Origin: Bacteroidetes bacterium UBA7662
GTDB taxonomy: Bacteria > Bacteroidota > Bacteroidia > UBA7662
DNA: 64,000 nt
NCBI GenBank assembly: GCA_002483345.1
Contig: DLHS01000016.1
Coordinates: forward strand, 21,956 to 85,955
Reading direction: 5' to 3'
Each line of letters opens with the position of its first letter. The first letter of the stretch is position 1. A program made the position numbers and the translations under genes. This document shows positions 8,219 to 43,173 of this stretch, in pieces. The notes beneath the pieces were generated by a model, which was given only the letters and a program-made list of their open reading frames with translations, searched no databases and was not told the DNA's origin.

Positions 8219-8223
8219 ACGGG

Positions 8224-14545: not shown

Positions 14546-14709
14546 TGCTTTACAAAGGTAAACTTCAAACCGACTTATACAGCATAAAAGTAAGAAGCGG
14601 CCGAGGCAGGAAAACTAACCAAATTGATATTAAGTCATGATTAATTTATACCAAGAACGTGAATATATCGCCGTCTGGACATACCCTTAACAGGGCATTT
14701 TTGGTCTGA

Positions 14710-16745: not shown

Positions 16746-17373
16746 GAAACTTTATAGGCTTGGCTGGTATGCCGACTGCAGTACAATAGGGAGGCAAACT
16801 TTTCGACACTACCGCACCTGAACCGACGATTGTATCTTCTCCTATTTCAAGCTGATTGATAATTTTTGCACCCGTTCCAACATATACGCCAGCCTTAATA
16901 ACCACCTCGCCCGATATATTTACCCCTGGCATAAAGGAGCTGTAGTCACCAATTATAGTGTCATGCCCTACTGTGCAGGCCAAATTGAGCAGCGTATGTT
17001 TTCCAAGAGAAATATCGACCGTTATCAGACAACCTGCACATATAATACTTCCATCTCCGATGCTCACCCGGTCTCCAATCAACACATTGGGGTGTATAAG
17101 CGTAGCGAATTTTGCTTTCGGGCCAAGGCGCTGAGCCACATTTCGTTTCGACTTGGGATTCCCCAATGCTAACACAAAATACGCTTCTGAATAATCCTTG
17201 GCCGAATCTATGCCTCCAATAACCTTTGTACTTCCAATGGCGGTTCCGGCTTCAAGGGATTCGTCCAGGAAACCCAATAAATCCCAGGTGAGTTGACGCG
17301 TGTTTATCTGGCTTATAAGCATCTCCACTTCTCTTCCAAACCCTCCTGCACCAATAATAATAACCTGCTTCAT
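16732..17373 (-). CDS. Sugar N-acetyltransferase, NeuD/PglD/PglB family (left-handed beta-helix)
   Basis: N-terminal Rossmann-like VIIIGAGGFGREV followed by hexapeptide repeats. 213 aa, typical for PglD/NeuD. Confidence 0.8.
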   Translation of the reverse strand: MKQVIIIGAGGFGREVEMLISQINTRQLTWDLLGFLDESLEAGTAIGSTKVIGGIDSAKDYSEAYFVLALGNPKSKRNVAQRLGPKAKFATLIHPNVLIGDRVSIGDGSIICAGCLITVDISLGKHTLLNLACTVGHDTIIGDYSSFMPGVNISGEVVIKAGVYVGTGAKIINQLEIGEDTIVGSGAVVSKSLPPYCTAVGIPAKPIKFHDES

Positions 17374-17984
17374 GTTTTTGATTTATTGCCTGTAAAATAC
17401 GTTGCAGTCGCAGCCCCCTGGGCATTAATTCCTTCCCGTATCAGCACTTTTTTAAAGGTCAGAAAAACTATTTTCAAGTCCAGCATAAAAGAGAAGTTAT
17501 CGACATACCAAACATCCAAAGCAAACTTTTCCTCCCAGGAAAGTGCATTCCGCCCGTTAATTTGTGCCCATCCGGTAATCCCAGGTCTTACATTATGTCT
17601 TTTTGATTGCTCCGGATTGTACAGGGGGAGATACTGAACAAGTAACGGTCTTGGTCCGATCAGACTCATTTCTCCCTTCAGCACATTAAAAAGTTGCGGG
17701 AGTTCATCCAGAGATGTTTTCCTGATAAAGCTACCCAGTCTGGTCATTCGTTTTTCATCAGGAAGCAGATTACCCTGCTCATCCCTGAGGTTGCTCATGG
17801 TTCTGAGTTTGACTAATCTGAATATCCGACTGTTTTTACCTGGTCTCAATTGCATGAAAAAGGGAGATTCTCCATCATAAAGGTAAATGAGCAATCCTAA
17901 AAACAGTATCACAGGTAATCCTAAAACAAGAACCAGGAAGGCCAGTGTGAAATCAATGAAACGTTTTCCAAATCTCTTGTACAT
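17370..17984 (-). CDS. Undecaprenyl-phosphate sugar phosphotransferase (PglC/WbaP-C-terminal 'bacterial sugar transferase')
   Basis: 204 aa with one N-terminal TM. Hallmark DELPQLFNVLKGEMSLIGPRP motif. Confidence 0.9.
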   Translation of the reverse strand: MYKRFGKRFIDFTLAFLVLVLGLPVILFLGLLIYLYDGESPFFMQLRPGKNSRIFRLVKLRTMSNLRDEQGNLLPDEKRMTRLGSFIRKTSLDELPQLFNVLKGEMSLIGPRPLLVQYLPLYNPEQSKRHNVRPGITGWAQINGRNALSWEEKFALDVWYVDNFSFMLDLKIVFLTFKKVLIREGINAQGAATATYFTGNKSKT

Positions 17985-17986
17985 GG

Positions 17987-19198
17987 CTAAAAAAATTGTT
18001 CATAGTCTCTGGCCAATTTATCGAAGCAGCGCTGTTCTTTCAGATATGCTATGGCCCTGGTTCCCATTTTTTCCCTTTCTTCAAATGACATACGCTGATA
18101 TCGGAGGATTTCTTTTGCAAGCAACTCAACATTCCCAAATGGCACAAAGCTCCCGCAATCGGCTTCATTAATCATCGACTGAAACCCGGAATATGAGCAA
18201 ACTATTGGTTTGCCTGCATTCATATAATCAATCCACTTATTTCTCGACAACCCGAAACGGGCAATTTCTGAATCAATAGCATCAAAACAAAGATCCACGT
18301 GCCTCAGAAAATTATTTACTAACTTTTTAGGAATGGGTGCTATAAAATGTATGTTCCCGAAATCCCTGTATTTCTCCTTATAGGTATCCAACATTGACCC
18401 GCTACCCAAAATATACGCCTCTACCTTAGCGTCTGTACCCAGACCTGCAACTGCAGCGAGCAGTGTTTCAATTGGATTATTGGGATTAATGGTCCCTGCA
18501 TAAGCAACTTTAAACGTATCCTGTGTAAAGGTATTTGAGACATAAGCGTCATCCAAAGGAACTCCGTATCCCAGGGATTCCCGTTTAATACCTTGTGGAA
18601 TACATACACACTCCTTAAAATATGGCTCTACCTCCCTAACATGTTCTATCAGATTCGGCATCGTACCAACTACCAAATCTGCCTTCCTGTATCCGAATTT
18701 TTCAAGAGTACCTAAAATCCATATAAAGGGGTTTCTACGGCTGAATCCCCCTAATTGCATGGCAGACAACGGCCAGATGTCCCGAATCTCCAGAATAAAT
18801 CTTGCCTTGTACCTGCGTGATAAAAGATATCCGGAAATTATACTCAGAATTGATAAAGACGATGCTATGACAACATCAGGCTTTGGAATTCCTTGTTTGG
18901 AGGTATAAAGGACTGCCCACTCAAAGTGAATCCAGGATAAAATACGTTGAACTGAAGAGGATTTTCTGGTCTTTAAAACCTTCAGCCAGATAGTCCGCAC
19001 CCCGGCTATATTCTCTTCCATTCTACTTCCTTCAAATACAGGCAGTTTGTCTGTTAAATGGGAAGCATTAGAGGTAAATACCGTCACATCATGGCCATTT
19101 TTCACCCATTCTTCTGCCAAATAAAAATGCCTCGTCCCGAAAAAGTACTTTTCAGGTGAGGCATATTTACAAATTAACCAGACGTTTTTACTCATCAC
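17987..19198 (-). CDS. Glycosyltransferase family 4
   Basis: 403 aa GT-B protein. C-terminal E-x7-E-like region typical of GT4. Confidence 0.75.
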   Translation of the reverse strand: MMSKNVWLICKYASPEKYFFGTRHFYLAEEWVKNGHDVTVFTSNASHLTDKLPVFEGSRMEENIAGVRTIWLKVLKTRKSSSVQRILSWIHFEWAVLYTSKQGIPKPDVVIASSLSILSIISGYLLSRRYKARFILEIRDIWPLSAMQLGGFSRRNPFIWILGTLEKFGYRKADLVVGTMPNLIEHVREVEPYFKECVCIPQGIKRESLGYGVPLDDAYVSNTFTQDTFKVAYAGTINPNNPIETLLAAVAGLGTDAKVEAYILGSGSMLDTYKEKYRDFGNIHFIAPIPKKLVNNFLRHVDLCFDAIDSEIARFGLSRNKWIDYMNAGKPIVCSYSGFQSMINEADCGSFVPFGNVELLAKEILRYQRMSFEEREKMGTRAIAYLKEQRCFDKLARDYEQFF

Positions 19199-20304
19199 GA
19201 TTCATAAAATTCCCGGATACAGCTTGCAACATAATTAATTTGTTCCTCCGTGAGCTCAGGATAAATAGGCAGGGACAGAATTTGCGACTGATAAGACGTA
19301 GCTACCGGGAAATCTGCCGGCTGATGTCCGAGATACTGATAGGCTTTAAGATTTGGCAGGGCAGTTGGGTAGTGGATGGCCGTTTCAACCTGCTTTCTTT
19401 TAAGGAACGTCATCAGGTCATCTCTTCTTTGGGCCCGAATTACATAAAGGTGAAAGGAGTGTTTGGAGTCAGGTCTTCTTGCTGGTGTCACAATTTGCGG
19501 AATGCCTTGTAAAGCTTTGTCGTACAAACTTGCACAGCGAATCCTTGCCTCTGTCCAATCGAGTATGTAAGGTAATTTTGCCGAAAGGATGGCTGCCTGC
19601 AAACCATCTAACCGGCTGTTGATTCCTTCAATCTGATGTTCATGTTTTTGGAGTGCCCCGTGTCGTGCATACATTTTGCATTTTTCAGCCAATTCGGCAT
19701 TGTTGGTAAGTATGCATCCTGCATCGCCATAGGCCCCCAGATTTTTACCAGGGTAAAAGCTGAAAGAAGCGGCAATACCAAAACTACCCACTCGTTTTCC
19801 CCCAAGCTCCGAAAAATGTGATTGTGCACAGTCTTCAATAACAGGAATACCATATTTATCTGCAATTGCGCAAATAGCTGTAATGTTAGCCGCCTGTCCT
19901 TGCAGATGTACCGGAATAATTGCTTTGGTCCGAGGGGTTATCCTTGCCTCAAGCATCGTTTCATCCATGCTATAATAAACAGGATCTATATCAACGAAAA
20001 CAGGCTTGGCACCTGTTTGGGAAATGGTTTCTGAAGAAGAAATCCAGCTGTTCGCCACGGTAATTACTTCGTCACCGTTCCCGATACCCAACATTTTCAT
20101 AATAATGTACAGAGAATCAGTACCATTGGCAACTGAAATACAATGCTTGATACCATAAAGGGATGAAAAGGCAGCTTCAAAATCTGTAACTGGTTTACCT
20201 CCAATAAAAGCTGTGTTTTCAATAACGTCAGAAATAGCGCTGTCTATTTCTTTCTTTATAGAATAATACTGTGCTTTTAAATCAACAAAAGGAACTTTTT
20301 GCAT
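19195..20304 (-). CDS. DegT-family aminotransferase (WbpE-like, UDP-2-acetamido-3-amino-2,3-dideoxy-hexuronate forming)
   Basis: VPFVDLKAQYYSIKKEIDSAI...CISVANGTDSLYI is a DegT/WbpE signature. Operon context with WbpD-like and WbpB-like genes. Confidence 0.8.
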   Translation of the reverse strand: MQKVPFVDLKAQYYSIKKEIDSAISDVIENTAFIGGKPVTDFEAAFSSLYGIKHCISVANGTDSLYIIMKMLGIGNGDEVITVANSWISSSETISQTGAKPVFVDIDPVYYSMDETMLEARITPRTKAIIPVHLQGQAANITAICAIADKYGIPVIEDCAQSHFSELGGKRVGSFGIAASFSFYPGKNLGAYGDAGCILTNNAELAEKCKMYARHGALQKHEHQIEGINSRLDGLQAAILSAKLPYILDWTEARIRCASLYDKALQGIPQIVTPARRPDSKHSFHLYVIRAQRRDDLMTFLKRKQVETAIHYPTALPNLKAYQYLGHQPADFPVATSYQSQILSLPIYPELTEEQINYVASCIREFYES

Positions 20305-20309
20305 ATAAG

Positions 20310-20765
20310 TTATTTAATTTTTTTGGCAGGATTTCCTGCATAAACTCCTGGCTGATGAATATCTTTTGTAACTACTGCCCCGGCACCAATAACCACATTA
20401 TCACATATGGTAACAGGAAGTATCGTTGCATTACTGCCAATGCTCACCTGATTCCCTATACGTGTTGACTTCCACAAGGTCTTGTCGCCTCTTGCCGGAC
20501 CACCTTTTGCAAAAAGGTCATTGATAAACATGACTCCATGACCGATAAAACAATCATCGCCAATATTAACCAGCTCACAAATAAATGAATGTGACTGGAT
20601 TTTAGTACGATGACCTATGATCACGTCTTTCTGGATCTCTACGAAAGGGCCAACAAAACAAGCATCTCCAATGGTACAGCCATATATATTAACAGGTTCA
20701 ACGATTTTGACTGATGAGCCAAACTGAACGTCTTTGATGGCAGAAGTATATAATGTAGGGCTCAT
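20310..20765 (-). CDS. Hexapeptide-repeat N-acetyltransferase (WbpD-like)
   Basis: 151 aa left-handed beta-helix protein. Adjacent to the WbpB/WbpE homologues. Confidence 0.7.
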   Translation of the reverse strand: MSPTLYTSAIKDVQFGSSVKIVEPVNIYGCTIGDACFVGPFVEIQKDVIIGHRTKIQSHSFICELVNIGDDCFIGHGVMFINDLFAKGGPARGDKTLWKSTRIGNQVSIGSNATILPVTICDNVVIGAGAVVTKDIHQPGVYAGNPAKKIK

Positions 20766-21778
20766 GACGCATTTTGTTTAACCGATTGATAAATCTTATC
20801 AATGATTTCAACAGTTTTCAGTCCCTCAAAAGAATTGGTAGAAATTGTGCTTCCATTGTTCAGAACATCTATTACATTTTCATATACCTTATCATGATTT
20901 GACATGGAACCCTGGTACTTACCATAGTTATTTGCCGTATTTCCAACAGGCAAATCTTTAAATTCAAATCCATCAATGTTCTGGTATTCCAACTCATTCA
21001 GATACTGACCTCCGATTTTTACGGTTCCTTTTTCCGCAAAAATGGTCAGTGATCCTTCCATATTTTTGCCATAGCTGTTAACAGTGTAATTTACAGTACC
21101 TATGGCACCGTTGTAGAACTGCATCACAACTGCGCCTGTGTCTTCAAATTCAATCACACCTTCATGGGCATAATTACCCATAAAAGCATGTACTTGTTTT
21201 ACATCACCCACTATCCAATAAAGTAAATCAATAAAATGGCTGAACTGAGTGTACAGCGTTCCGCCATCAAGTGCTTTAGTTCCTTTCCAGGAATTTTCGT
21301 AATAATCAAAGTTCCTGTTCCAGAAACAGCTGAGCTGAACACTGTAAATCTTACCCATTATACCCTCATCAATGGCCTTCTTGACTGCAGCAACCGGTGG
21401 ATTAAATCTGTTCTGTTTTATGGCAAACAAGCGTTTGTTATTTTTTTCCGCAGTTTTAATCATTTCACCACAATCATAAACACTGATTGCCATAGGTTTT
21501 TCACATAAGACATGATATCCTGCATTCAATGCTGCAATGGCGTGCTGAGCATGGAGCCCGTTAGGGCTGCTTATGGTCACAACATCTACATCGGGTTTTG
21601 CAGTCAGGAGTTCTTCTATCGAAAAAAACACCCGGGCATCATATTTCTTGCCGAGAGAATTAGCCTTTTCAGGTTCTATATCGCATACTGCCACTAACTC
21701 CCCTAGTCTTGCTATATGTTCGGCATGGCGTTGTGCAATCCGTCCACAACCAACAATTGCAAATTTAATTTTTTTCAT
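20762..21778 (-). CDS. Gfo/Idh/MocA-family oxidoreductase (WbpB-like UDP-GlcNAcA 3-dehydrogenase)
   Basis: KFAIVGCGRIAQRHAEHI N-terminal Rossmann of the Gfo/Idh/MocA family. 338 aa. Confidence 0.8.
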   Translation of the reverse strand: MKKIKFAIVGCGRIAQRHAEHIARLGELVAVCDIEPEKANSLGKKYDARVFFSIEELLTAKPDVDVVTISSPNGLHAQHAIAALNAGYHVLCEKPMAISVYDCGEMIKTAEKNNKRLFAIKQNRFNPPVAAVKKAIDEGIMGKIYSVQLSCFWNRNFDYYENSWKGTKALDGGTLYTQFSHFIDLLYWIVGDVKQVHAFMGNYAHEGVIEFEDTGAVVMQFYNGAIGTVNYTVNSYGKNMEGSLTIFAEKGTVKIGGQYLNELEYQNIDGFEFKDLPVGNTANNYGKYQGSMSNHDKVYENVIDVLNNGSTISTNSFEGLKTVEIIDKIYQSVKQNAS

Positions 21779-22905
21779 ATACTGGGCTTTTCAAGGTATA
21801 AATTAAGGTAGGTCTTGGCAATTTGAGTCCATGAGAATGGTGCGACCGCCTGAACAGCTTCCCTACTTGCCGTTTCGAAATTGTCAGCTATTTTTTTGAT
21901 AGCTTCAATACTCTCGTTCATATTGTTTGGTTGTACCGGAATTGCAAAGCTACTCTTTTCAAAATAACCATCTATTCCCTGCCCTGCAGTATGTATAACA
22001 GGTAAACCCTGACTCAGCGCCTCCAAATAAACCAAACCAAATGTTTCAAGCTTACTGATCATGACAAAAATATCATGTTCTCCATAAAGCGCCCGCATGG
22101 CAGTGGCTCCTTCAACCTTTCCGACAAATTTCACAAAACTAAAGTCTTCTTGCTTTAAAGCCTTTAAAACACTTTCATGACCATCTCCGCCCCCTCCGGC
22201 AAGCGTGAGTGTTACAGGACGTTCTCCAGATAGTGCTTTTATCACGCTAAGAAGAAGTAAAATGTTTTTATTGAAGGTAAAATCACCTACGTACAATATC
22301 CTCAATGGATTATGGGGTACAGGCCGGGATTCCTGATTTTCAAACCAATCAGGAGTTAATCCGTTTGGTATCACAGTCGCATTCAAAATACGCTCCTTCA
22401 GTTGCCCGGCAATATATTTATCCGCAACCTGCTTCCGATACGACGGTGTAACAAATATGCACTGCCTGGCATTTGACAGAATATTTTGTCCATGTCCTCT
22501 CAGATGAATCATATATTTAAAAAACATATTTACATCTGTATTCCTGACTGCTGTAATATATGGGATTGAAAATTGCTGCTTTAATTTCAAGGCAACACCC
22601 CCGTCACTGAATAAGAAGTGAGCATGGATGATGTCTATTCCTTTTATTTCCACTTTGGACAGAACATCCTCATAAATGGTATTGATTTTTGATTTGTAAA
22701 GTATACGGTGTTTTGGCTCAAGAATATGGGCATAAATAACAACTGTATCCGGTACATTAGGGATATCGTACTTCCCAACTTCTGCTGCTGTCCTGACAGG
22801 TACATAAATGGTTTGACGGATTCCCATTTGTGCAAGCGACAGAAAAAGTTCTTTGTACAGCTTTTGTCTGGAATAATCGGAGCACAAATGAAGCACATGT
22901 ATCAT
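21775..22905 (-). CDS. Glycosyltransferase family 4
   Basis: 376 aa GT-B protein. Overlapping start and stop with neighbours. Confidence 0.75.
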   Translation of the reverse strand: MIHVLHLCSDYSRQKLYKELFLSLAQMGIRQTIYVPVRTAAEVGKYDIPNVPDTVVIYAHILEPKHRILYKSKINTIYEDVLSKVEIKGIDIIHAHFLFSDGGVALKLKQQFSIPYITAVRNTDVNMFFKYMIHLRGHGQNILSNARQCIFVTPSYRKQVADKYIAGQLKERILNATVIPNGLTPDWFENQESRPVPHNPLRILYVGDFTFNKNILLLLSVIKALSGERPVTLTLAGGGGDGHESVLKALKQEDFSFVKFVGKVEGATAMRALYGEHDIFVMISKLETFGLVYLEALSQGLPVIHTAGQGIDGYFEKSSFAIPVQPNNMNESIEAIKKIADNFETASREAVQAVAPFSWTQIAKTYLNLYLEKPSI

Positions 22906-24032
22906 CTGGAGTAATAGCCCTTTTCTCTTAGTTTATTTACAAAAGACTTTAGCTTTTGTACTCTTTCAAAATTATTGGGGTAATCTCTGAACGTTTTAGG
23001 AGGCAGAGCCATGATAGCATCAAAAGATGCTTCATTTAACTCAAATTTCTTGATAACAAAATCCTTGTCCTGCCTGAAGAGTTTTTCATCATAACCAGGC
23101 AATTCCATTTGTTTCAGCGCATCCTCCCGGCTTATCTGTCCCGACTTAATCAAATCTGATAAATGAGCTTTGCGTTTATCTATTCCAAATTTCCGGGGCA
23201 GAATATAACCCTGAAAAAATCTTGTATAGACCGACTCATAGTGTTTACCTCCGTAATAAACCCAGCCAAGCTCAGATTGAAGAATCTCCATCACGGCATC
23301 CTTCTTATAATCTACATAGTTTAATATTGAAATTACTTTAATTCGTTTTACAATATTCCACCAGAACAAATCAAAGAAAGTGTATTTGGGATATCGGTTC
23401 AATTTAGCTGTCCCGAAAATCTTTTGAATTGACTTAATATACTTCCAATCACTGTGTCCATATGCCCATCCGGGTACACTAATGGATTCTGCCGCGAAAT
23501 TCATTCCATTTATAATATACTTGATTCCCCTCTTATTAGCCTCCCTGAACAGCAAGGCATTGATGGCATGATCTGTCGGGATTTCACCATCCGGTGTGGA
23601 AGCCTTTAAAAATGAAAGCTGCAAATCTTTAAATTCTTCCCAATCAATGACATAAGTATATAAGTCAATGCCCAGGTGATCCAGTGTCTTTTCTATATTA
23701 CTTACAGCTAATTCAGAATTCCATCCGTTATCAAAGTGAATGGCCAGGGGCCGGATGCCCAGTTGTTTGGTTAAATAGGCCACATAGGTGCTGTCAACAC
23801 CTCCGCTCACGCCAATGATACAATCGTATTCCTTCCCGTTACCGGATGCCTTTATTTTTTCTATCAGTATGCTGAGTTTCTGATCAGCCTCCTGTCCGCT
23901 AAATACCCTTCTATGGAGTTCGCTGTTATACCTCAGACAATGATTGCAGATTCCCTTGCTGTCAAATGTAATGTCCGGATCAGAAGTATCCATTATACAC
24001 TGGGTACATATTTTATAGGCGAGATCTTTCAT
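22902..24032 (-). CDS. N-acetyl sugar amidotransferase (WbpG/WbuX/PseA-like PP-loop ATPase)
   Basis: N-terminal Cys cluster (CTQC...CNHC) and PP-loop IIGVSGGVDSTYVAYL. 376 aa. Immediately followed by HisH/HisF paralogs as in wbpG-hisF-hisH and wbuXYZ clusters. Confidence 0.8.
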   Translation of the reverse strand: MKDLAYKICTQCIMDTSDPDITFDSKGICNHCLRYNSELHRRVFSGQEADQKLSILIEKIKASGNGKEYDCIIGVSGGVDSTYVAYLTKQLGIRPLAIHFDNGWNSELAVSNIEKTLDHLGIDLYTYVIDWEEFKDLQLSFLKASTPDGEIPTDHAINALLFREANKRGIKYIINGMNFAAESISVPGWAYGHSDWKYIKSIQKIFGTAKLNRYPKYTFFDLFWWNIVKRIKVISILNYVDYKKDAVMEILQSELGWVYYGGKHYESVYTRFFQGYILPRKFGIDKRKAHLSDLIKSGQISREDALKQMELPGYDEKLFRQDKDFVIKKFELNEASFDAIMALPPKTFRDYPNNFERVQKLKSFVNKLREKGYYSR

Positions 24033-24784
24033 AGCGAATTTAGATTTGCAATTTCATCCTGAGTGGGGTAGTTTATCAAAACAGCCCTGTGTTTTCCTTT
24101 ATATACAAAGAAGCTGCCAGCTGCCACTGAAGAAGCTTTCCCAATTTTGAGTGCATCAGCAATGTGAGAAATATTACCTGCCCCGCCACTGGCTACAATT
24201 GGCACATTTACGGCATTGGCAACACTTTTAGTAAGCTCCAGATCAAAACCAGACATACTTCCTTCCTTATCAACAGACTGAATAATGATTTCTCCTACTC
24301 CGGCTGCAACTACCTGTCTGGCAAAATCTTCCGGTGTCCATTTGTGTTTAACGGTACCGCTTTTGCTGTACACCTGATAGGAACCAAAAAAAGACTTTTT
24401 GGCATCTATGGAGACTACGATGCTTTGATTGCCATAAATGGAAGCGGCCTTTGCAAGTAATTCAAAATCGAAGGCAGCAGAATTCATAATAACTTTTTCA
24501 ACTCCCAGATCAAAAATCCTGCGTATCTGCTCAATATTCCTGATCCCCCCCCCATAACCAACCGGCATGAAACATTCACTTACAATATCTTTTATCCAGG
24601 CATAGTTGGGCTCTCTTTGTTGCGTACTGGCTTCAATATCACATAATACCAATTCATCAACCTCTTTTTCGTTGAATATCCTGACAGCATTGATCGGATC
24701 TCCAATGTAAACAGGGTTCTTGAAATTAACAGTCTTCACCAATCCCTTCCCTTTGAGCAACAATACCGGTATAAGTCTTATCAT
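24029..24784 (-). CDS. HisF-like imidazole glycerol phosphate synthase cyclase subunit paralog (WbuZ-like)
   Basis: MIRLIPVLLLKGKGLVKTVNF matches the HisF N-terminus. ATG at 24784 sits 2 nt after the hisH-like stop. The upstream in-frame Met at 24862 would overlap. Confidence 0.85.
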   Translation of the reverse strand: MIRLIPVLLLKGKGLVKTVNFKNPVYIGDPINAVRIFNEKEVDELVLCDIEASTQQREPNYAWIKDIVSECFMPVGYGGGIRNIEQIRRIFDLGVEKVIMNSAAFDFELLAKAASIYGNQSIVVSIDAKKSFFGSYQVYSKSGTVKHKWTPEDFARQVVAAGVGEIIIQSVDKEGSMSGFDLELTKSVANAVNVPIVASGGAGNISHIADALKIGKASSVAAGSFFVYKGKHRAVLINYPTQDEIANLNSL

Positions 24785-24786
24785 TT

Positions 24787-25404
24787 TCACAACTCTAAAA
24801 AATTCTGGAAAAGGCGCATCCCAAACTTGTGACTCTTTTCCGGATGAAACTGTACTGCCCAAATATTATCCTTATGCAAACCCGCAGCAAATGGAGTCTT
24901 GTATGCAGCTGTACATAATACATCCGAAGGCTGGTTACTGTGCATATAGTAGGAATGAACAAAATAAAACCTGGGATTCTCCGGCAGATTCTTTAGCAAT
25001 TCCGTTTCATTTTCAAATTGAATGGTATTCCACCCCATATGGGGTATCCTTATGTTCTCTTCATTCGGAAGTTTCGAGAAATGAAGTACTTCGGCATCAA
25101 AAAAACCAAATCCAGGCATAGTCCCTTCCTCTGACCTTTGGGTCAACAACTGCGCCCCCAAACAAATACCCAGTAAAGGCCGCTCTTTCTGCTGCACATA
25201 CGCTTTCACAGCTTCTACTAAATTATTGTCTGACAGCATCTTCATCCCATGATCAAAATGCCCTACACCTGGCAGTATTAATTTATCCGCACCCAATATT
25301 TCGTCAGGACTGCTGACAATTTTACTTGTCCCCCCCAGCCTGCGAATCATGTTAACAATAGAGCCTATGTTTCCCGCTCCGTAGTCAATGATACTTATCA
25401 TCAA
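24787..25404 (-). CDS. HisH-like glutamine amidotransferase paralog (WbuY-like)
   Basis: IIDYGAGNIGS, GVGHF and PHMGWN are class-I GATase motifs. Confidence 0.85.
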   Translation of the reverse strand: MMISIIDYGAGNIGSIVNMIRRLGGTSKIVSSPDEILGADKLILPGVGHFDHGMKMLSDNNLVEAVKAYVQQKERPLLGICLGAQLLTQRSEEGTMPGFGFFDAEVLHFSKLPNEENIRIPHMGWNTIQFENETELLKNLPENPRFYFVHSYYMHSNQPSDVLCTAAYKTPFAAGLHKDNIWAVQFHPEKSHKFGMRLFQNFLEL

Positions 25405-26570
25405 AGCAGCTCTTCTATATCATTCATTCCAAAGTCTTTCAAAACAACCGTTTTACCAGTTCTGTATGCTTCAACCCCAGCGAGCGCTACCACCACTGAT
25501 CTGGCAGCGTCGAATACTGTACAATCTAACTTACCCTTTCCCTTGACAGTATTCATAAAGTTTTCTGCAGAATTTCTGACCGCCATGGAGTGTTCATAAA
25601 GTCTGATGGGATAATATCCAATATTGTATTGGGCATTATAAGGGTATGACCGCATCAGCCATTCAAAAAGTTTGGAGTAGGTAGCGATGACTGTTTCTTT
25701 TATCCATGCCAGTTTCCTGCCTTGCATGGTATTTCTGATCGGAGTAGCAAATATTTCAAAACTCCCGTCTTTGTCAAACAGCATATTGTTGAAGATGCTC
25801 TTATCATTACCATAAACCTGAACCGTATGGTCTTGCGGTCTTCCGGCACCGAAGGCAGTTACTACTTTCCCAATTATACCTGACCTGAACTTAAGCAGGA
25901 CTACATTTAAATCACTCTCCGGATATTCAGGGAAACAAATATTGTTTGCCATGGCTGATACCTCTACAATCTCATCATCAACAACCCACCTGAGAAGGTC
26001 GACGAAGTGAATCCCTGAATAAATGAGTGGGGTAGCGTTCTCAACCAACCGCCAGTTATCGTATTCAAAAGCTCGTTTGGTAAGGTTGTGTACATAGTAT
26101 CCTTCTATATATCCAACTTTCCCAAGCACACCACTGCTGACGATATCCTTGATTTTACGGTGTATAGGCAAACACCTCATCTGGTGTTGAACGCCGACTA
26201 CAATGTCAGGATGTGCTTTTACACATTTCAGAATATCTCTTATCCCTTCGACAGAATCGGTCAGAGGTTTTTCGCACAATACATGTTTACCATGTTCCAC
26301 ACTCCGGCAGATATATTTTGCATGGGTGCTATCTGGTGAAGAAACAACCACGATATCAATTCCACTTTCAAGAAATGCATCAAAATCCGATGTGAGGAAT
26401 AGGTCTGCCCTATGATTCCTTGCCCGTTCAAAGGCTGGCTCTTTTATGTCGAATACACTGATTACAGAACAGTCATCAAACGATTCAAAGTGTTTGTACA
26501 GAGCCATGCCTGCTCCTCCAAAACCTACGATTCCGATGTAGTACTTTTCTTTTATCTTAATTTTATCCAT
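25401..26570 (-). CDS. Gfo/Idh/MocA-family oxidoreductase
   Basis: N-terminal IGIVGFGGAGMALYKHF Rossmann fold, with VLCEKP motif. 389 aa. Confidence 0.75.
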   Translation of the reverse strand: MDKIKIKEKYYIGIVGFGGAGMALYKHFESFDDCSVISVFDIKEPAFERARNHRADLFLTSDFDAFLESGIDIVVVSSPDSTHAKYICRSVEHGKHVLCEKPLTDSVEGIRDILKCVKAHPDIVVGVQHQMRCLPIHRKIKDIVSSGVLGKVGYIEGYYVHNLTKRAFEYDNWRLVENATPLIYSGIHFVDLLRWVVDDEIVEVSAMANNICFPEYPESDLNVVLLKFRSGIIGKVVTAFGAGRPQDHTVQVYGNDKSIFNNMLFDKDGSFEIFATPIRNTMQGRKLAWIKETVIATYSKLFEWLMRSYPYNAQYNIGYYPIRLYEHSMAVRNSAENFMNTVKGKGKLDCTVFDAARSVVVALAGVEAYRTGKTVVLKDFGMNDIEELL

Positions 26571-26595
26571 AGGACAATAGGTAATAAAATTGAAC

Positions 26596-27537
26596 TTAAT
26601 TTCTTGTATTGTATTCTTTTATTTCAGCATTAATATATAGCTGAGGATCATCCTTCTCTAATAAATTTTCCGCAATCAAACCAGCGAAAAAGGTGGAGAA
26701 TATATGGGCTCCCTTTTCATTAAGGTGCTCCAGATCAGCAAAATGCTGGTTTCCGAGAGCCAGTTGTTTAAAGTCAAGAAAAACGACCCCATCCAGCAAT
26801 TCCTGTCTGTTCTTCTGAAAAAAAGCTTCGTTCTGTAAATAAGGCCAGGCCGGATGGAGGGGTGTTCTGATCAGGTAAAGGGATACTTTTTTCTCTTTGC
26901 ATAATGCTACTATCTTCAACAAATAGTGCATATTCAACTTGGCCATATCTGCAGGTAATATCGTCTCCTGAGAAGCTATGTTCACAAATGAATCGGTAAG
27001 CAGTCGGGTCAAAGGGGAAAAACCGCCCAATGAATGATTTGTCAATACATTGACAGAGGTCATTGCCTCCCTACTTACTTTTGGCAGTGCCTTGATATGT
27101 GTTTTTATAAAAGGTAATTCGTTATTAAGCGTCAGATGTTCAAACTCTTCTTTTCCTAAAAGAGCGTAGTACAACGGGTATCTTGAATTCAGATAATTTT
27201 CCGAATAAATAATGGAATCCTGCTGCTTATCAACCTGGAAGTTGCAAAAATCAACAAAAACATGTTCAATATGAGCATTCGTTTCCAATACATTCTTAAT
27301 CTTCAAATAGGTGAACATATAGATTTCACTGGATTGAGAAATATTCACAAAACCATCCAGAGATGTATTCATGGAACACTCAAGGTGAGAATCTCCCACC
27401 ACCAGATACTTTTTTGATTCAGGTATTCTGAAATAATCAGCATCGTATTGGCATAAATAACCAATCCAGGAGGCAATTAAAAGAACAACTACAAAAAGCA
27501 AACTGAACTTAGCCGAATCAACTAAAAAATTTCTCAT
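26596..27537 (-). CDS. Signal-anchored SGNH/GDSL-like protein, putative O-acetyltransferase partner of MBOAT (AlgJ/AlgX/PatB-like)
   Basis: N-terminal signal anchor. VVGDSHLE (block I GDSH) and C-terminal DLEHLN (DxxH). Immediately downstream of the MBOAT gene. ATG at 27537 chosen, which removes the 77-nt overlap. Confidence 0.45.
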   Translation of the reverse strand: MRNFLVDSAKFSLLFVVVLLIASWIGYLCQYDADYFRIPESKKYLVVGDSHLECSMNTSLDGFVNISQSSEIYMFTYLKIKNVLETNAHIEHVFVDFCNFQVDKQQDSIIYSENYLNSRYPLYYALLGKEEFEHLTLNNELPFIKTHIKALPKVSREAMTSVNVLTNHSLGGFSPLTRLLTDSFVNIASQETILPADMAKLNMHYLLKIVALCKEKKVSLYLIRTPLHPAWPYLQNEAFFQKNRQELLDGVVFLDFKQLALGNQHFADLEHLNEKGAHIFSTFFAGLIAENLLEKDDPQLYINAEIKEYNTRN

Positions 27538-27544
27538 GGTAGTC

Positions 27545-28993
27545 CTAGAACTGAAAATAAATAAATTCCTGCTCGCGGCCGTTAAAAAGGAAAATACAGA
27601 ATAGTATAACCCCATATACAACCCATCTTACATTCCGTTTCCACGGGTTCATAAAATGCTGTATAGCATACTGGCTTTCTCTGCCAATCCATTCAATCAG
27701 CATAAATATGACTACCAGTATCAAAGTTGACACTGCCAATCCAATTCCCGGGAAATACGGAATTTTGAACAGATCCCATGTAAACATCCCTTGCAAATAA
27801 CTAAAGGCATGTCCTACGTTTTCAGCTCTGAAGAAAATCCAGGCCAAAACTGTGAGCGAAAACGTAATCGAAATAGAGAAAAACTCCCTGAGGGTAGGGA
27901 AATACCTGCCAGCTGCCACTATATCAAGATTTACCCTGTTTTTACCCCTCAGCAATGAGGGTAAAAAATAGAGTGCATTCAGCCCTCCCCATATTATGAA
28001 AGTCCAGTTGGCACCATGCCAAAATCCGCTTACCAGAAATATTATAAATGTGTTCCTTATTTTAAAACCCATGGAACCTCTGCTGCCACCTAAGGGGATG
28101 TATAAATAATCTCTGAACCAGGAAGACAAAGAAATGTGCCATCTCCTCCAGAATTCAGCTATATCTCGAGAAAAGTATGGGTATGCAAAATTCCTTAACA
28201 AATCAATCCCAAATAAACGAGCAGTACCAAGAGCTATGTCAGAGTATCCTGAAAAGTCACAATATATCTGAAACGTGAAGAACAATGCTCCAAGAAGCAG
28301 GGTACTGCCTGAATAGTCAGAAGAGTTATTAAAAATAATATTGGCATATTCCGCACAGTTGTCCGCTATGACCACTTTTTTAAAGAGACCCCATAAAATC
28401 TGCTTCAATCCATCTACTGCCTGTAACCGGCTAAAAACACGCATTTTCTGAATCTGGGGCAGAAGGTGCGTTGCCCTTTCGATAGGACCTGCCACCAGTA
28501 ACGGAAAAAAACTTACAAAAACAGAGTAGTCTACAACATTCTTTTCTGCCTTGATCTTACCGTTATAGATATCGATAACGTATGACAATCCGTGAAAGGT
28601 ATAGAATGAAATACCTACCGGCAGAATAACATTTAAAGTGAACACATCCACACCTATACCCAAACTGTCAAGACCTGAAGCAAATGAGGTGACAAAAAAA
28701 TTATAGTATTTGAACACTCCCAGAAATCCAAGATTTACAATTATGCTCAACCAAAACCAGAATTTCTTTTTTCTGACATCTATCGCTTCTTCAATTTTGA
28801 TTCCGGAGTAGTAGTCCAGAAATGTGGAGAACATCAACAGGAAGAGGAAACGATAATCCCAGCAGGCATAAAAATAATAGCTTGCAACGAGCAACAAAAT
28901 ATTCTGAAGACGCAGACTTTTATTGACCACAAACCAATAGAAAAAAAACACTATTGGTAAAAATATGACGAATTCAATAGAATTAAACAGCAT
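27545..28993 (-). CDS. MBOAT-family membrane-bound O-acyltransferase (AlgI/DltB/PatA-like)
   Basis: 482 aa polytopic protein. Conserved FWRRWHISLSSWFRDYLYIPLGGSR with the catalytic His. Confidence 0.85.
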   Translation of the reverse strand: MLFNSIEFVIFLPIVFFFYWFVVNKSLRLQNILLLVASYYFYACWDYRFLFLLMFSTFLDYYSGIKIEEAIDVRKKKFWFWLSIIVNLGFLGVFKYYNFFVTSFASGLDSLGIGVDVFTLNVILPVGISFYTFHGLSYVIDIYNGKIKAEKNVVDYSVFVSFFPLLVAGPIERATHLLPQIQKMRVFSRLQAVDGLKQILWGLFKKVVIADNCAEYANIIFNNSSDYSGSTLLLGALFFTFQIYCDFSGYSDIALGTARLFGIDLLRNFAYPYFSRDIAEFWRRWHISLSSWFRDYLYIPLGGSRGSMGFKIRNTFIIFLVSGFWHGANWTFIIWGGLNALYFLPSLLRGKNRVNLDIVAAGRYFPTLREFFSISITFSLTVLAWIFFRAENVGHAFSYLQGMFTWDLFKIPYFPGIGLAVSTLILVVIFMLIEWIGRESQYAIQHFMNPWKRNVRWVVYGVILFCIFLFNGREQEFIYFQF

Positions 28994-30214
28994 CTATATA
29001 AGTTGTTTGTTGTAATTAGATTCATTCTGACTTATCCCGAAATAGATTGCCAGGAAAACAGTCAATTGAGGAATCACGCATACAGTCTCTGTAAAATCGA
29101 CTGAAATAATAGTCAATCCTATAAGGATTTTTGGTGCTGCGGATCTTACGCTCAAAAGTTTTGCAAAAAGAATGTATAAGTAAAATAAATACCCAACAAT
29201 GCCCCTTTCTATCAGTAGTAACAAAGAGGCCGATTCACTACCCTTGTGGGGAGCGCCCGTGTCAGCCATTAAAAACATTTCATTCCCGGTACCGACGCCA
29301 AACAAAGGCCTCTGGCTAATCAGGTCGAATGTAAATTCGGCAATTCTACGTCGGATGGTATAAGAATTATCTTCCTGATCTACCAACGCACTCAATCTGA
29401 AAAGATCATCAAGAACCAATAGATCCTCATAGTTACTGTAGACAAACAATCCGAGCAGCACGCTTACAGCCAAAAAGATTAAAAGTTTAAAATGTTGTTT
29501 TTTGATCACGCTGTAAACAACATTTACCATTACGAATGCGAGCATGGATGTCCTCGATTTTGAGAACAAAACAAGGTTAGCCAGAACAAAGAGAAACAAG
29601 ATTACTTTCTCCTTCTTCGACAAGTAATCCGGGTTTTCGAAAAATAAGAGTATGTAACAGAATACCGTAAAAACTCCGAATACGTTCGCATTCCCAAGAA
29701 AAGAAACAGGCCTTTTGGCTAATGGCAGGGCTTCTTCAACATAAACTACCCAACTTCCGTTTTCAATAACATAGATAGGTTGAAACAACGACTGATAAAG
29801 TGCTACAAAAAAAGAAACAATCAGAAGTACTTTAACAACCCCAAAATAAAATGACGTCTTCCGTATTTTGAGGGTTCTGACCAGGTAGTAAAATAAAACA
29901 GGGACTACTGCTCTTAAAAATCCCGGAATTGTAACCCCATAAGGAGAAAGCGCATAAGAACATAGAATTGTAAAAACAAAAAGTACAATAAACCAAACTT
30001 CATTTTTAGTAAAGATTGCCCCTTTTGCCAGTAGTAAACAGGCAAACAAGACGGGTAGCGTAATGAATGTGGAGATATTATAAAGCCAATAGGGTAATCC
30101 CGGAATATACCCGAGCATCCCAAGCGTAAACATAACCGCAAACAGAAGGTTTGCAACTATACCATTTGAATGTACGCGCGGCACATCCGTAACCACATTA
30201 CTTAACGATGTCAT
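28994..30214 (-). CDS. Wzy_C-family membrane protein (putative polymerase)
   Basis: 406 aa polytopic protein. GAPHKGSESASLLLLIERGIVG resembles the Wzy_C H...E-R-G-I-x-G motif. Confidence 0.5.
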   Translation of the reverse strand: MTSLSNVVTDVPRVHSNGIVANLLFAVMFTLGMLGYIPGLPYWLYNISTFITLPVLFACLLLAKGAIFTKNEVWFIVLFVFTILCSYALSPYGVTIPGFLRAVVPVLFYYLVRTLKIRKTSFYFGVVKVLLIVSFFVALYQSLFQPIYVIENGSWVVYVEEALPLAKRPVSFLGNANVFGVFTVFCYILLFFENPDYLSKKEKVILFLFVLANLVLFSKSRTSMLAFVMVNVVYSVIKKQHFKLLIFLAVSVLLGLFVYSNYEDLLVLDDLFRLSALVDQEDNSYTIRRRIAEFTFDLISQRPLFGVGTGNEMFLMADTGAPHKGSESASLLLLIERGIVGYLFYLYILFAKLLSVRSAAPKILIGLTIISVDFTETVCVIPQLTVFLAIYFGISQNESNYNKQLI

Positions 30215-31353
30215 TCAACAATGAATCGACTGTATATTTCTTCCATGACACCAGAACATCTTTCATTAGAATGCTCCTTAACCACAAACGCTTTACCTCT
30301 TGCGGAAATGCTACCCCAATCGGGAATCGATTTAAGTTTATCAAACTGGGCAACAAGGCCCTTGGGATCTCCCTCTGCTGCTAAAAAATGATTTTCAGGA
30401 GGTATAATATTGGGAATATCCGCGTGTGTGGTTGAAACGACAGGCAGACCTAAAGCCTGCATCTCTATGATAATTGTGGGAGCCCCTCCCTCAGACCCAC
30501 CATCAGGAGCAGTTTCACTGGGATGAAAAAACAAATGGAAAGACGTGGACAGGGTATAGATCTCATCCAGAGATCTTTTACCAATCAGGGAAACAACATG
30601 ACCGAGTTCAAGCCTTTCTATAAGATTGAGAATGTCAACCTTCTGAGGCCCCTCTCCAATGATAACAACCTCGAGCTTGTCTCCTCTGTCAGCCATTATT
30701 TTAATGGCTTTGAGCGCTGTCAGATACCCCTTCTTTGGATAAAAATTGGCACACATCAAAATCTTCAATACTTCGCCTTCAGACCAGGAATTACGTTCTC
30801 TGAACTGGAGGTGGTCTAAAGGAACCCCTATCTTAACCACCGAAACCTTCTCTTGTTCACATCCCAATTCCACCATCCTGCTCTTCATAAATTGGCCTTC
30901 CACTACTATCTGAGAAGCATGCTCAAAGAGTAAATGGTAACGATCCCTCCAACCAGGCAACTTAGGTACGTCAGACATATCAGAGCCATAAAAAGTAACA
31001 ATCAGCGGTATGTTGAGCTTTTTAGACAGCTTAATAGCATAATATCCCTGAGTACCCATGTGGGCGTGCAAAATCCCGATATTTTTTTCTTTCCTCAACA
31101 AAAAATAGTAGGACCACCAATCATTAATCAGACGTGCGCTAAACCCCAGTTTAACGGTCAGCAGCTTATCGAGAAACAAAAAAGGTGCAAAAAACGGGCT
31201 TGTCTTCAGTATATTCTTATAGGGATAAAGAATTGTATCGACAGGAATTATTTCCCTACAAGCTACAAAATGCTCGTACTTTCTGAATCCCTTCAGTAAA
31301 AAATAGACGAAGCTGACTCTCAGGTACTGATCTCTAAGATGTATAATTTTCAT
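30211..31353 (-). CDS. Glycosyltransferase family 4
   Basis: 380 aa GT-B protein. EGGAPTIIIEMQALGLPVVST is a GT4 C-terminal motif. Confidence 0.8.
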   Translation of the reverse strand: MKIIHLRDQYLRVSFVYFLLKGFRKYEHFVACREIIPVDTILYPYKNILKTSPFFAPFLFLDKLLTVKLGFSARLINDWWSYYFLLRKEKNIGILHAHMGTQGYYAIKLSKKLNIPLIVTFYGSDMSDVPKLPGWRDRYHLLFEHASQIVVEGQFMKSRMVELGCEQEKVSVVKIGVPLDHLQFRERNSWSEGEVLKILMCANFYPKKGYLTALKAIKIMADRGDKLEVVIIGEGPQKVDILNLIERLELGHVVSLIGKRSLDEIYTLSTSFHLFFHPSETAPDGGSEGGAPTIIIEMQALGLPVVSTTHADIPNIIPPENHFLAAEGDPKGLVAQFDKLKSIPDWGSISARGKAFVVKEHSNERCSGVMEEIYSRFIVE

Positions 31354-41300: not shown

Positions 41301-41891
41301 TTATGATTTCCTTTTAACCGCGCCTGCAATCATTTCGTATTGCTGTCCGCTTTCAGGGCAAATGGCCATGCCAGATGCATCAAAAACAAGTTTGTGGCCA
41401 TACTCACTTACCCAGCCACTTTGTCTGGCAGGATTCCCTACCATCAATGCATAGGCCGGCACCTCCCTGGTTATTACTGCACCTGCTCCAATCAATGCAA
41501 ACTGATGAATGTCATGGCCGCATACAATAGTAGCATTGGCTCCGATGCTGGCTCCCTTCTCTACTTTGGTTTTGACATACGCTTCCTTCCTGCTGACGGC
41601 ACTGCGAGGGTTTATAATGTTGGTGAAAACACAGGAAGGTCCCAAAAAAACATCGTCCTCACAGCTGACACCGGTATACAGACTTACATTGTTCTGAACC
41701 TTTACGTTGTTACCCAGTACTACCCCGGGAGAAACAACTACGTTCTGTCCAATATTGCAATTCTGACCTATAATGCTGCCGGTCATGACATGGCAGAAAT
41801 GCCATATACGGGTTCCGGCACCTATTTCACAGCCCTCATCTATGACAGCTGTTTCGTGTGCAAAATATAATTTGGAATCAGAGTCTGGCAT
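41301..41891 (-). CDS. Hexapeptide-repeat N-acetyltransferase (WbpD-like), second copy
   Basis: 196 aa left-handed beta-helix protein with the same size and architecture as WbpD. Sits between WbpA-like and WbpB-like genes. Confidence 0.75.
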   Translation of the reverse strand: MPDSDSKLYFAHETAVIDEGCEIGAGTRIWHFCHVMTGSIIGQNCNIGQNVVVSPGVVLGNNVKVQNNVSLYTGVSCEDDVFLGPSCVFTNIINPRSAVSRKEAYVKTKVEKGASIGANATIVCGHDIHQFALIGAGAVITREVPAYALMVGNPARQSGWVSEYGHKLVFDASGMAICPESGQQYEMIAGAVKRKS

Positions 41892-43173
41892 CCGCTAAAT
41901 GGCGTGGAATAAAGGCTTTGGTGTCGAAAATAACGGCCCCTTGTGCCTTCATCTTTTCAAAATCTATGCTTTTAAAGCTTTCATGAGAGACAGCCACAAT
42001 AACCGACTGGTACTTTTTATCAACCAACTGCTCTAAAAGATCCAGCTTATACTCGTGTTTAACTTCATCCGCATTTGCCCAGGGGTCATAAACATCTACC
42101 TGCAGGCCAAACTGAACCAATTCATTGTAAATATCGATAACCTTCGTGTTCCGGACATCCGGACAGTTTTCCTTGAAGGTTACTCCCAGAATAAGGGAGT
42201 GCGCCCCTTTGATGGTATGTCCTTTCTGGATCATCAACTTTACGACCTTGTTTGCCACAAACATGCCCATATTGTCATTCACCCTTCTCCCGGAAAGAAT
42301 AACCTGAGGGTGATAGCCCAATGACTCTGCCTTGTGCGCAAGGTAATATGGATCAACACCTATGCAGTGACCGCCAACCAGGCCTGGTTTGTACTTCAGG
42401 AAATTCCACTTGGTAGCGGCTGCATCCAGCACATCCTGGGTGTCGATTCCCATTCTGTCGAAAATAAGCGCAAGTTCATTCACAAAAGAGATGTTCACAT
42501 CCCTTTGTGCGTTCTCAATTGCCTTCGATGCTTCAGCAACCCGGATTGAACTGGCCATGAAAGTTCCTGCGGTAATAATAGAGGCATATAATTTATTCAC
42601 CAGCACGGCTATTTCAGGGGTAGAGCCGGATGTAACTTTTTTAATCTTTGTAAGCGTATTTACTTTGTCGCCCGGATTTATTCTTTCAGGGGAGTAGCCG
42701 CAAAAGAAATCCTGATTGAACCGGAGGCCGGAGAACTTTTCGAGTATAGGCACACAGTCTTCTTCTGTACAGCCGGGGTAAACAGTCGACTCATAAACCA
42801 CGACATCTCCTTTGGAAAGAACTTTGCCAAGCATTTCAGAAGCTTTCAACAGAGGCTTCAAGTCAGGTGCTTTAAAGCTATCAATAGGTGTCGGAACGGT
42901 AACGATGTAAAAATTTCTGTCTTTCAGAAAGGCGGTCTCATGGGAGAAACGTAATCCTGTTTTTGAGTTTTCTCCGGATACAAATACTGCTTTCAATTCT
43001 TCAGGGTCAGCTTCCAGGGTACGGTCTTCTCCCCGTCGAAGCTCTCCGATACGGTCTTCGTTGATATCAAAACCAAGTACATCGTATTTTTTGGCAAATT
43101 CGATTGCCAACGGCAACCCTACATAACCCAACCCAATTATCGCAATTTTCGGCTCAAAAGAATCAAAATCCAT
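41878..43173 (-). CDS. UDP-N-acetyl-D-hexosamine 6-dehydrogenase (WbpA/TviB/WecC family)
   Basis: KIAIIGLGYVGLPLAIEFA NAD-binding N-terminus. 431 aa nucleotide-sugar dehydrogenase. Confidence 0.85.
   Translation of the reverse strand: MDFDSFEPKIAIIGLGYVGLPLAIEFAKKYDVLGFDINEDRIGELRRGEDRTLEADPEELKAVFVSGENSKTGLRFSHETAFLKDRNFYIVTVPTPIDSFKAPDLKPLLKASEMLGKVLSKGDVVVYESTVYPGCTEEDCVPILEKFSGLRFNQDFFCGYSPERINPGDKVNTLTKIKKVTSGSTPEIAVLVNKLYASIITAGTFMASSIRVAEASKAIENAQRDVNISFVNELALIFDRMGIDTQDVLDAAATKWNFLKYKPGLVGGHCIGVDPYYLAHKAESLGYHPQVILSGRRVNDNMGMFVANKVVKLMIQKGHTIKGAHSLILGVTFKENCPDVRNTKVIDIYNELVQFGLQVDVYDPWANADEVKHEYKLDLLEQLVDKKYQSVIVAVSHESFKSIDFEKMKAQGAVIFDTKAFIPRHLADARL

Follow-up and report, generated by a model that had tools for sequence, protein, structure and literature searches.

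A predicted acetamidino-forming hisH-hisF2-wbuX module in a polysaccharide locus of a Bacteroidota bacterium

Background

What do genes resembling hisH and hisF do beside a sugar amidotransferase gene in a polysaccharide locus? The question is raised by a stretch of 64,000 nucleotides (nt) of contig DLHS01000016.1 (assembly GCA_002483345.1) from Bacteroidetes bacterium UBA7662, which is referred to here, at its full length, as the window. A reading made from the sequence alone had placed an amidotransferase/HisH/HisF triad at positions 22902–25404 and assigned it to acetamidino-sugar synthesis. Open reading frame (ORF) and profile analysis shows three intact minus-strand ORFs in this region, hisH2, hisF2 and wbuX, whose products pass family cut-offs. 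The best explanation overall, and a probable one, is that the triad uses glutamine to form acetamidino groups, as modules of the WbpG-HisH2-HisF2, WbuXYZ or AglXYZ kind do. The function predicted from the protein families, conversion of an N-acetyl group on a sugar to an acetamidino group, is very probable.

The triad and its products

The triad is transcribed in the order hisH2, hisF2, wbuX, with the amidotransferase gene last. Due to the minus-strand location the order is reversed relative to wbpG-hisH-hisF of Pseudomonas aeruginosa and wbuXYZ of Escherichia coli. The earlier statement that this is the same triad as in those two species is thus correct for the protein families and incorrect for the gene order. 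The likely start of hisH2 is the ATG at 25401 and not the TTG at 25404; this ATG overlaps the stop codon of the upstream gene by 1 nt (TGATG), and the exact 204 amino acid (aa) product that begins there exists in a public protein collection. The hisH2 TGA is separated by a 2-nt gap from the likely start of hisF2, which is the ATG at 24784 and not the TTG at 24862. The hisF2/wbuX junction is a 4-nt ATGA overlap, and the junction between wbuX and the downstream family 4 glycosyltransferase (GT4) gene is likewise ATGA. No second HisF-, HisH- or WbuX-like gene is found elsewhere in the window by tblastn, and a housekeeping hisHF pair is not visible in it, as had been noted before.

WbuX matches model TIGR03573 with 304.9 bits (cut-off 203.2, E 8.5e-91), and its residues 7–341 span model positions 2–343 of 344. 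The hallmarks of this family of N-acetyl sugar amidotransferases (NASATs) are a PP-loop and a tetracysteine zinc motif, CxxCxn[GN]xCxxC, as described with the LpNASAT structure (PMC10607449). Both are present. The PP-loop is S76-GGVDS-81, and the zinc motif is C9-x2-C12...G27-x-C29-x2-C32 (CTQC...GICNHC). The two motifs are invariant across 54 close WbuX homologues. The PP-loop holds up on closer alignment: SGGVDS does not vary in alignments A1 and A2, and SGGxDS is found in 89/89 homologues from genome loci. An AlphaFold model of WbuX (predicted local distance difference test score 89, predicted template modelling score 0.87) has 8WEX, the Legionella pneumophila NASAT, as its best PDB match. 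The match is full length with a template modelling (TM) score of 0.66–0.68 and E ~1e-15, whereas the runner-up folds (TtuA, LarE, asparagine and NAD synthetases) have a TM score of ~0.3.

HisF2 passes the AglZ/HisF2 model NF038364 with 350 bits against a cut-off of 310. It has a Pfam His_biosynth match (E 4e-61) and aligns with HisF structures (LUCA-HisF, E 1e-47), but it is below the cut-off of the hisF equivalog model TIGR00735 (196.8 bits vs 294.55). The position of Asp11 in Thermotoga maritima HisF is Leu in the window protein; Asp130 is retained. Asp11 is essential for the cyclase reaction of T. maritima HisF, as reportedly found by Beismann-Driemeyer and Sterner in 2001. The change of this catalytic Asp to Leu implies that HisF2 is unable to carry out the cyclase reaction and hence is not the housekeeping enzyme. 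The substitution is constant. Position 11 is Leu in 67/67 aligned WbuX-linked HisF2 proteins, which come from many phyla. The same homologues conserve the ammonia-gate residues R5, E46, K99 and E167, as well as K19, D51, D130, D176 and two phosphate-binding glycine loops. HisF2 therefore appears, from its conserved residues, to retain the features for docking HisH and passing ammonia.

HisH2 has 222.4 bits against TIGR01855 (cut-off 105.4), a model that cannot tell HisH from HisH2. It also matches Pfam GATase (2e-23) and the V. cholerae HisH structure 4GUD (140.7 bits, E 5.7e-40). The catalytic Cys (GICLG) and the His/Glu pair (FHPEK) are intact, and the Cys-His-Glu triad shows no variation in an alignment of 71 sequences, 70 of which have residues at these sites and one a gap. 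As judged from these profile searches, the family scores of the three proteins lie far above chance level. The assignment to acetamidino synthesis of the WbpG/WbuX type is upheld by the family models, the PP-loop, the four zinc-binding cysteines, the 8WEX fold, Leu11 of HisF2, the HisH catalytic triad and the coupling within the operon.

Proposed mechanism

In the proposed mechanism HisH2, with its intact Cys-His-Glu triad, would hydrolyse glutamine, and the ammonia would travel by way of the HisF2 barrel, a putative channel, to WbuX. WbuX is predicted to be a zinc-binding PP-loop ATP pyrophosphatase that uses ATP, yielding AMP and pyrophosphate, to activate the carbonyl oxygen of the sugar N-acetyl group. 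Ammonia would then displace the activated oxygen, giving sugar-NH-C(=NH)CH3. The adenylation step is inferred by analogy with other PP-loop enzymes, from the chemistry of the family and from genetics in other organisms. WbpG is required for 2-acetamido-3-acetamidino-2,3-dideoxy-mannuronic acid (ManNAc3NAmA) and WbuX for 2-acetamidino-2,6-dideoxy-galactose (FucNAm) (PMC10607449). An interaction between HisF2 and WbpG was predicted and then confirmed by co-immunoprecipitation (PMC11445079), which supports the delivery of ammonia.

HisF2 is perhaps not a passive pipe. The former site for N'-[(5'-phosphoribulosyl)formimino]-5-aminoimidazole-4-carboxamide ribonucleotide (PRFAR) is nearly intact in the 67 WbuX-linked homologues; Asp11 alone is changed, and always to Leu. 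This pattern permits the speculative and rather unlikely idea that a phosphorylated ligand is bound at the barrel mouth, e.g., a nucleotide-sugar, a polyprenyl-diphosphate-linked sugar, or ATP or pyrophosphate. Through such binding HisF2 could gate the glutaminase or hand the substrate over to WbuX.

Comparison with known systems

The P. aeruginosa O5 system WbpG-HisH2-HisF2, which acts in synthesis of the ManNAc3NAmA-containing B-band O antigen, consists of the same three protein families. It is also associated with a pathway of the UDP-GlcNAc3NAcA type, i.e., a 3-dehydrogenase, an aminotransferase and an N-acetyltransferase. The differences are the gene order (wbpG-hisH-hisF there, hisH-hisF2-wbuX here), the class of the 3-dehydrogenase (WlbA here, with 249 bits, and not WbpB, with 65 bits), the absence of a WbpI 2-epimerase from the window, and the Bacteroidota host.

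TIGR03573 is named after WbuX of E. coli O145, which, with LfnA of P. aeruginosa O12, acts in L-FucNAm synthesis, and HisH/HisF-like partners, WbuY and WbuZ, are present there too. However, these systems modify a 6-deoxy sugar at its 2-N-acetyl group, and L-FucNAc genes of the FnlA/B/C type were not identified in the window. The window HisF2 is below the WbuZ cut-off (278.2 vs 299.7 bits) and above that of AglZ/HisF2. No DNA similarity to E. coli genomes was found by blastn against 5,426 genomes.

The model that HisF2 passes carries the name of AglZ from Methanococcus maripaludis. AglX, AglY and AglZ of that archaeon have the same three-component logic, and their target is a diacetamido uronic acid (ManNAc3NAmA6Thr in the archaellin N-glycan). 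The setting there is archaeal N-glycosylation, in contrast to the bacterial Wzx/Wzy polysaccharide locus here. King et al. in 2008 and Jones et al. in 2012 are said to be the primary genetics papers on WbpG and AglXYZ.

The L. pneumophila protein in 8WEX, the sole solved structure of the family, matches the predicted fold of the window WbuX and has its PP-loop and zinc-binding cysteines in common with it (PMC10607449). It differs in that identity is 17–19%, that it has 468 aa with an extra disordered segment, and that it belongs to O-antigen synthesis of the legionaminic-acid type. Imidazole-glycerol-phosphate (IGP) synthase, HisH-HisF, has the glutaminase triad, the barrel, the gate (R5, E46, K99, E167), D130 and the phosphate-binding loops in common with the window pair. 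Unlike the window HisF2, it has Asp11 where Leu is invariant here; the window protein is below the hisF cut-off, and a his-operon context is missing. The ammonia acceptor of IGP synthase is PRFAR, whereas here it would be a separate PP-loop enzyme.

The sugar substrate

Wlb-like genes that would serve to make a diacetamido uronic acid lie downstream of the GT4 gene in the same operon (Table 1). The 3-dehydrogenase is closest to 3Q2I and 3Q2K, presumably the WlbA enzymes of C. violaceum (Chromobacterium) and B. pertussis (Bordetella), and has just 65 bits to P. aeruginosa WbpB (3OA2). The best PDB matches of the acetyltransferase, 7S43 and 4MZU, are other 3-amino-sugar N-acetyltransferases and score slightly above Bordetella WlbB (3MQG). 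The aminotransferase matches DesV (297 bits), QdtB (294 bits) and WbpE (3NYU/3NU7, 288 bits). The adjacent genes had previously been described as a WbpB/D/E-like set; this description fits the WbpE-like aminotransferase and does not fit the dehydrogenase, which is of the WlbA class.

Related genome loci, designated by L numbers, were compared for gene content. Among the 55 loci with 6 kb or more of sequence to either side, HisH and HisF2 adjoin WbuX in 46; the pair precedes wbuX in 37 and follows it in 10. The commonest sugar-pathway genes with the triad are Wlb-like, leaving aside the generic initiating transferase PglC. Of the 23 loci that possess them, 13 have them no more than 1.5 kb from the triad, in comparison with 2 of 20 for PglE/F-like genes. 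The cassette hisH-hisF2-wbuX-(GT4)-wlbA-wlbB-wlbC is present in Bacteroidota, Alpha- and Gammaproteobacteria, Verrucomicrobia and Planctomycetota. Juxtaposition of triad and Wlb genes in unrelated phyla (L012, L014, L022, L028, L029, L033, L036, L048, L079 and L086) suggests that the genes travel as a cassette and serve a shared function.

Because this cassette recurs in several phyla, a 2,3-diacetamido-2,3-dideoxy-hexuronic acid made by the WlbA/WlbB/WlbC-like proteins is the most likely single substrate, with about an even chance of being the correct one. After modification it would form one residue of a surface polysaccharide made by the Wzx/Wzy route. A 3-acetamidino-2-acetamido-dideoxy-hexuronic acid, the product proposed from the sequence alone, is accordingly the likeliest candidate, but the window, which has no 2-epimerase gene, gives no indication of the manno configuration and hence none of ManNAc3NAmA itself.

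Several observations weigh against the module assignment or the substrate. HisF2 does not reach the cut-off of the older WbuZ model, TIGR03572 (278.2 vs 299.7). The acetyltransferase at 20310–20765 resembles WlbB weakly (3MQG, 52.8 bits). The candidate 6-dehydrogenase is 18 kb off and, with 560.7 bits, is just under the cut-off of 592 of the TviB model NF011729. A 2-epimerase of the WbpI/WlbD type (Epimerase_2) is absent from the 64-kb window in tblastn and Pfam scans; a homologue occurs in the related locus L002. In some loci with WbuX orthologues of 62–72% identity, the sole pathway visible within 10 kb is of the PglF/E type (bacillosamine-like). The chemistry of the NASAT family rests on genetics and analogy, as none of its enzymes is known to have been reconstituted in vitro.

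It is possible, though less likely than the uronic acid, that the same module acts on another sugar of the repeat unit. This could be a bacillosamine-type 2,4-diacetamido-2,4,6-trideoxyhexose, a 4-acetamido-4,6-dideoxyhexose of the RmlB/WecE-like pathway, or the 2-N-acetyl instead of the 3-N-acetyl group of the diamino uronic acid. PglF-, PglE-, PglD- and PglC-like genes and the RmlB/WecE-like pair lie in the same cluster, and the characterised family members act at both C2 (FucNAm) and C3 (ManNAc3NAmA) (PMC10607449). The nearest WbuX relatives in a neighbour-joining tree, L003, L005 and L009 (67–72% identity), are in loci where PglE/F-like genes are present and WlbB/C is absent within 10 kb. 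The lack of Wlb genes within 10 kb is weak evidence, since the window's own second Wlb set is 16 kb from the triad. In contrast to the rarity of PglE/F-like genes beside the triad, the Wlb set of the window comes after wbuX with a single GT4 gene between and with overlapping junctions; the PglC/PglF/PglE set is a generic priming-sugar pathway of many loci. The tree mixes Wlb-type and Pgl-type loci inside the clade of the window and does not discriminate between the substrates. WbuX phylogeny was therefore dropped for substrate assignment, and it is only the distance to the triad that favours the Wlb pathway. Since the sugar pathways differ between loci whose WbuX orthologues share more than 60% identity, WbuX might recognise a common carrier-linked intermediate instead of one specific sugar.

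A different amidation by the triad, e.g., of the uronic acid carboxylate to a carboxamide and not to an amidine, is improbable. PP-loop enzymes that make amides (NAD synthetase and asparagine synthetase) do appear as weak matches, and the family is without in vitro chemistry. However, genetics in four systems ties the family to acetamidino groups (WbpG, LfnA/WbuX, PseA and AglX; in part PMC10607449). Uronamides are usually assigned to AsnB/WbpS-like enzymes, which are encoded by separate genes next to the triad in L001, L002, L014, L028 and others. An AsnB-type amidotransferase was not found in the 64-kb window by tblastn, and the uronamide reading is disfavoured because the enzymes that normally fill this role are separate in the relatives and missing here.

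That hisH2 and hisF2 encode the housekeeping IGP synthase and are chance neighbours of a sugar amidotransferase gene is scarcely credible and was rejected on the hidden Markov model cut-offs and the Asp11-to-Leu substitution: HisH2 passes the HisH equivalog model and no further hisH/hisF is present within 64 kb, but HisF2 passes the AglZ/HisF2 model in place of the hisF model, hisA/B/C/D/G/I genes were not found nearby, the triad is translationally coupled within a polysaccharide operon, and in Bacteroidota surveyed for these genes the canonical copies are in his operons while hisF2/hisH2 are extras outside them (PMC8305728).

Genomic context of the acetamidino module

The triad is inside a run of 21 minus-strand genes (34596 to 14710) in which the largest intergenic gap is at most 25 nt. 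In sequence, the locus carries Wza-like, Wzz-like, RmlB, a WecE-like aminotransferase, a methyltransferase, Wzx, GT4, Wzy, MBOAT and an ORF without assignment. It continues with a GFO/IDH/MocA oxidoreductase, hisH2-hisF2-wbuX, GT4, the WlbA-class 3-dehydrogenase, the left-handed beta-helix (LbH) N-acetyltransferase and the C-3 aminotransferase. Then come GT4, PglC-like, PglD-like, exosortase XrtF with a small partner, PglE-like, PglF-like and WecA-like genes. From this gene content the surrounding locus is identified as a Wzx/Wzy-type polysaccharide locus. G+C content is 38–43% in the central cluster (16000–36000) and 45–52% in the flanks with housekeeping genes, a contrast that is usual for variable glycan loci and would fit horizontal exchange.

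Table 1. Features of the window discussed in the text
Feature	Position	Strand	Remarks
GFO/IDH/MocA oxidoreductase, 389 aa	25401..26570	-	Pfam GFO_IDH_MocA match; weak similarity to solved structures
hisH2 (WbuY-like)	24787..25401	-	Class-I glutamine amidotransferase, 204 aa; predicted NH3-supplying glutaminase
hisF2 (WbuZ/AglZ-like)	24029..24784	-	HisF-type (beta/alpha)8 barrel, 251 aa; predicted to conduct ammonia and to lack cyclase activity
wbuX/wbpG-type N-acetyl sugar amidotransferase (NASAT)	22902..24032	-	376 aa, PP-loop ATP pyrophosphatase (predicted)
GT4 glycosyltransferase	21775..22905	-	Pfam Glycos_transf_1 6.8e-21; candidate transferase for the modified sugar
WlbA-class UDP-N-acetylglucosaminuronic acid (UDP-GlcNAcA) 3-dehydrogenase-like oxidoreductase	20762..21778	-	3Q2I 249 bits, 3Q2K 235 bits
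LbH N-acetyltransferase, 3-amino-sugar type (WlbB/WbpD-like)	20310..20765	-	Pfam Hexapep 2.7e-19
C-3 sugar aminotransferase (WlbC/WbpE-like)	19195..20304	-	DegT_DnrJ_EryC1 5e-111
PglF/PglE/PglD-like bacillosamine-type genes	12584-17373		Same cluster
Candidate UDP-N-acetylglucosamine (UDP-GlcNAc) 6-dehydrogenase (TviB/WbpA-like)	41878..43173	-	TIGR03026 391.6 bits; would supply UDP-GlcNAcA
Second Wlb-like set: WlbA-like	40292-41329
Second Wlb-like set: LbH acetyltransferase	41301-41891
Second Wlb-like set: DegT aminotransferase	43232-44377	+
sucA	61032-63746
sucB	59796-61019
lpdA-type	53497-54939

The GFO/IDH/MocA gene directly upstream, whose stop codon forms the 1-nt overlap with the hisH2 start, was considered as a fourth component of the module. 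It was rejected on the absence of a counterpart beside the triad in all 86 related loci, and it is probably not part of the module. In related loci the slot upstream of the triad is often taken by a gene for an AsnB-like amidotransferase. The GT4 gene downstream of wbuX is also present in L001, L002, L003 and L005.

The second Wlb-like set of the window adjoins the candidate 6-dehydrogenase and a Ugd (44399–45820). As read from these assignments, the window appears to encode two complete 3-amination sets for one 6-dehydrogenase.

XrtF (TIGR04128, 101.9 bits) and its 126-aa partner ORF are located at 15842–16745 between the PglD-like and PglE-like genes, an arrangement shared with L001. The MBOAT protein is DltB/AlgI-like (27545–28993) and is followed by a 341-aa ORF (26596–27621); the listed ORFs overlap by 77 nt. 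The 341-aa ORF has no Pfam or NCBIfam match. The two are possibly an O-acylation pair for the polysaccharide.

A second group of glycan genes is found at 671–11343. It encodes GT2 glycosyltransferases (671–1597, 3586–4419 and 4419–5174), a nucleotidyl transferase (5349–6644), a second Wzy_C/O-antigen-ligase-like protein (8224–9471, minus strand) and a membrane glycosyltransferase of the PMT_2 family (9922–11343). A NusG-domain protein of 163 aa, the size of an UpxY-like anti-terminator, is encoded on the plus strand at 47891–48382, near a 3-deoxy-D-manno-octulosonic acid (Kdo) transferase gene (49240–50535). Its gene is oriented so that it does not read into the minus-strand polysaccharide operon. 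The lpdA and suc housekeeping genes mentioned in the sequence-only reading are present (Table 1).

Related loci and breadth of the family

WbuX homologues are very widespread. There are at least 8000 protein matches at E <= 1e-20 and at least 568 loci in species-representative genomes, which span Bacteroidota, Proteobacteria, Verrucomicrobia, Planctomycetota, Chloroflexota, Actinobacteria and Archaea. The nearest homologues among the matches listed are from Sediminibacterium (87–88% identity); together with XrtF they assign the window to the Bacteroidota and probably to the Chitinophagaceae. A locus with more than 72% identity to the window protein was not found in the scan of species-representative genomes. 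The closest locus compared, L001 (87% identity), retains hisH-hisF2-wbuX-GT4-wlbA-wlbB-wlbC-GT4-pglC-pglD-xrtF. The same trio has been described in a Sphingomonas cluster for a cell-associated polysaccharide, where its neighbours encode a dehydrogenase of the MviM type, an acetyltransferase of the WxcM type and an aminotransferase (PMC11340318).

Some loci depart from the simple triad. L003, L005, L009, L010, L013, L021 and L029 have two WbuX paralogues (~45–50% and ~60–72% identical to the window WbuX) and one HisH/HisF2 pair, which suggests two acetamidino modifications from a single ammonia source. In L002/L008, from a metagenome-assembled genome of the Balneolaceae, an AsnB-like gene with class-II glutaminase and Asn_synthase domains is directly before hisF2-wbuX (7396–11140), and no hisH is found within 10 kb. 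A different glutaminase may be used there in place of HisH. L024, L030, L037, L046, L056 and L057 carry an extra, distant HisF-like/HisH-like pair (32–40% identity, order F then H) immediately upstream of the trio; the residue at the Asp11 position of the six extra HisF-like proteins is D in three, L in two and E in one.

Significance

The annotation as an acetamidino module is correct but ordinary, as it places a well-known module in a new organism. The prediction is routine: each of the three proteins is already named by a curated NCBIfam model, and the family has very many members. The invariant Asp11-to-Leu change provides a simple diagnostic to separate HisF2 from true HisF, which could help annotation pipelines that wrongly assign HisF2 to histidine synthesis. 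The recurrent hisH-hisF2-wbuX-wlbABC cassette offers a concrete substrate for a first in vitro reconstitution of this enzyme family. For the organism itself, an environmental member of the Bacteroidota, the locus predicts an acetamidino group in its polysaccharide. Such groups give surface glycans a positive charge and alter their antigenicity and their recognition by phages and the immune system.

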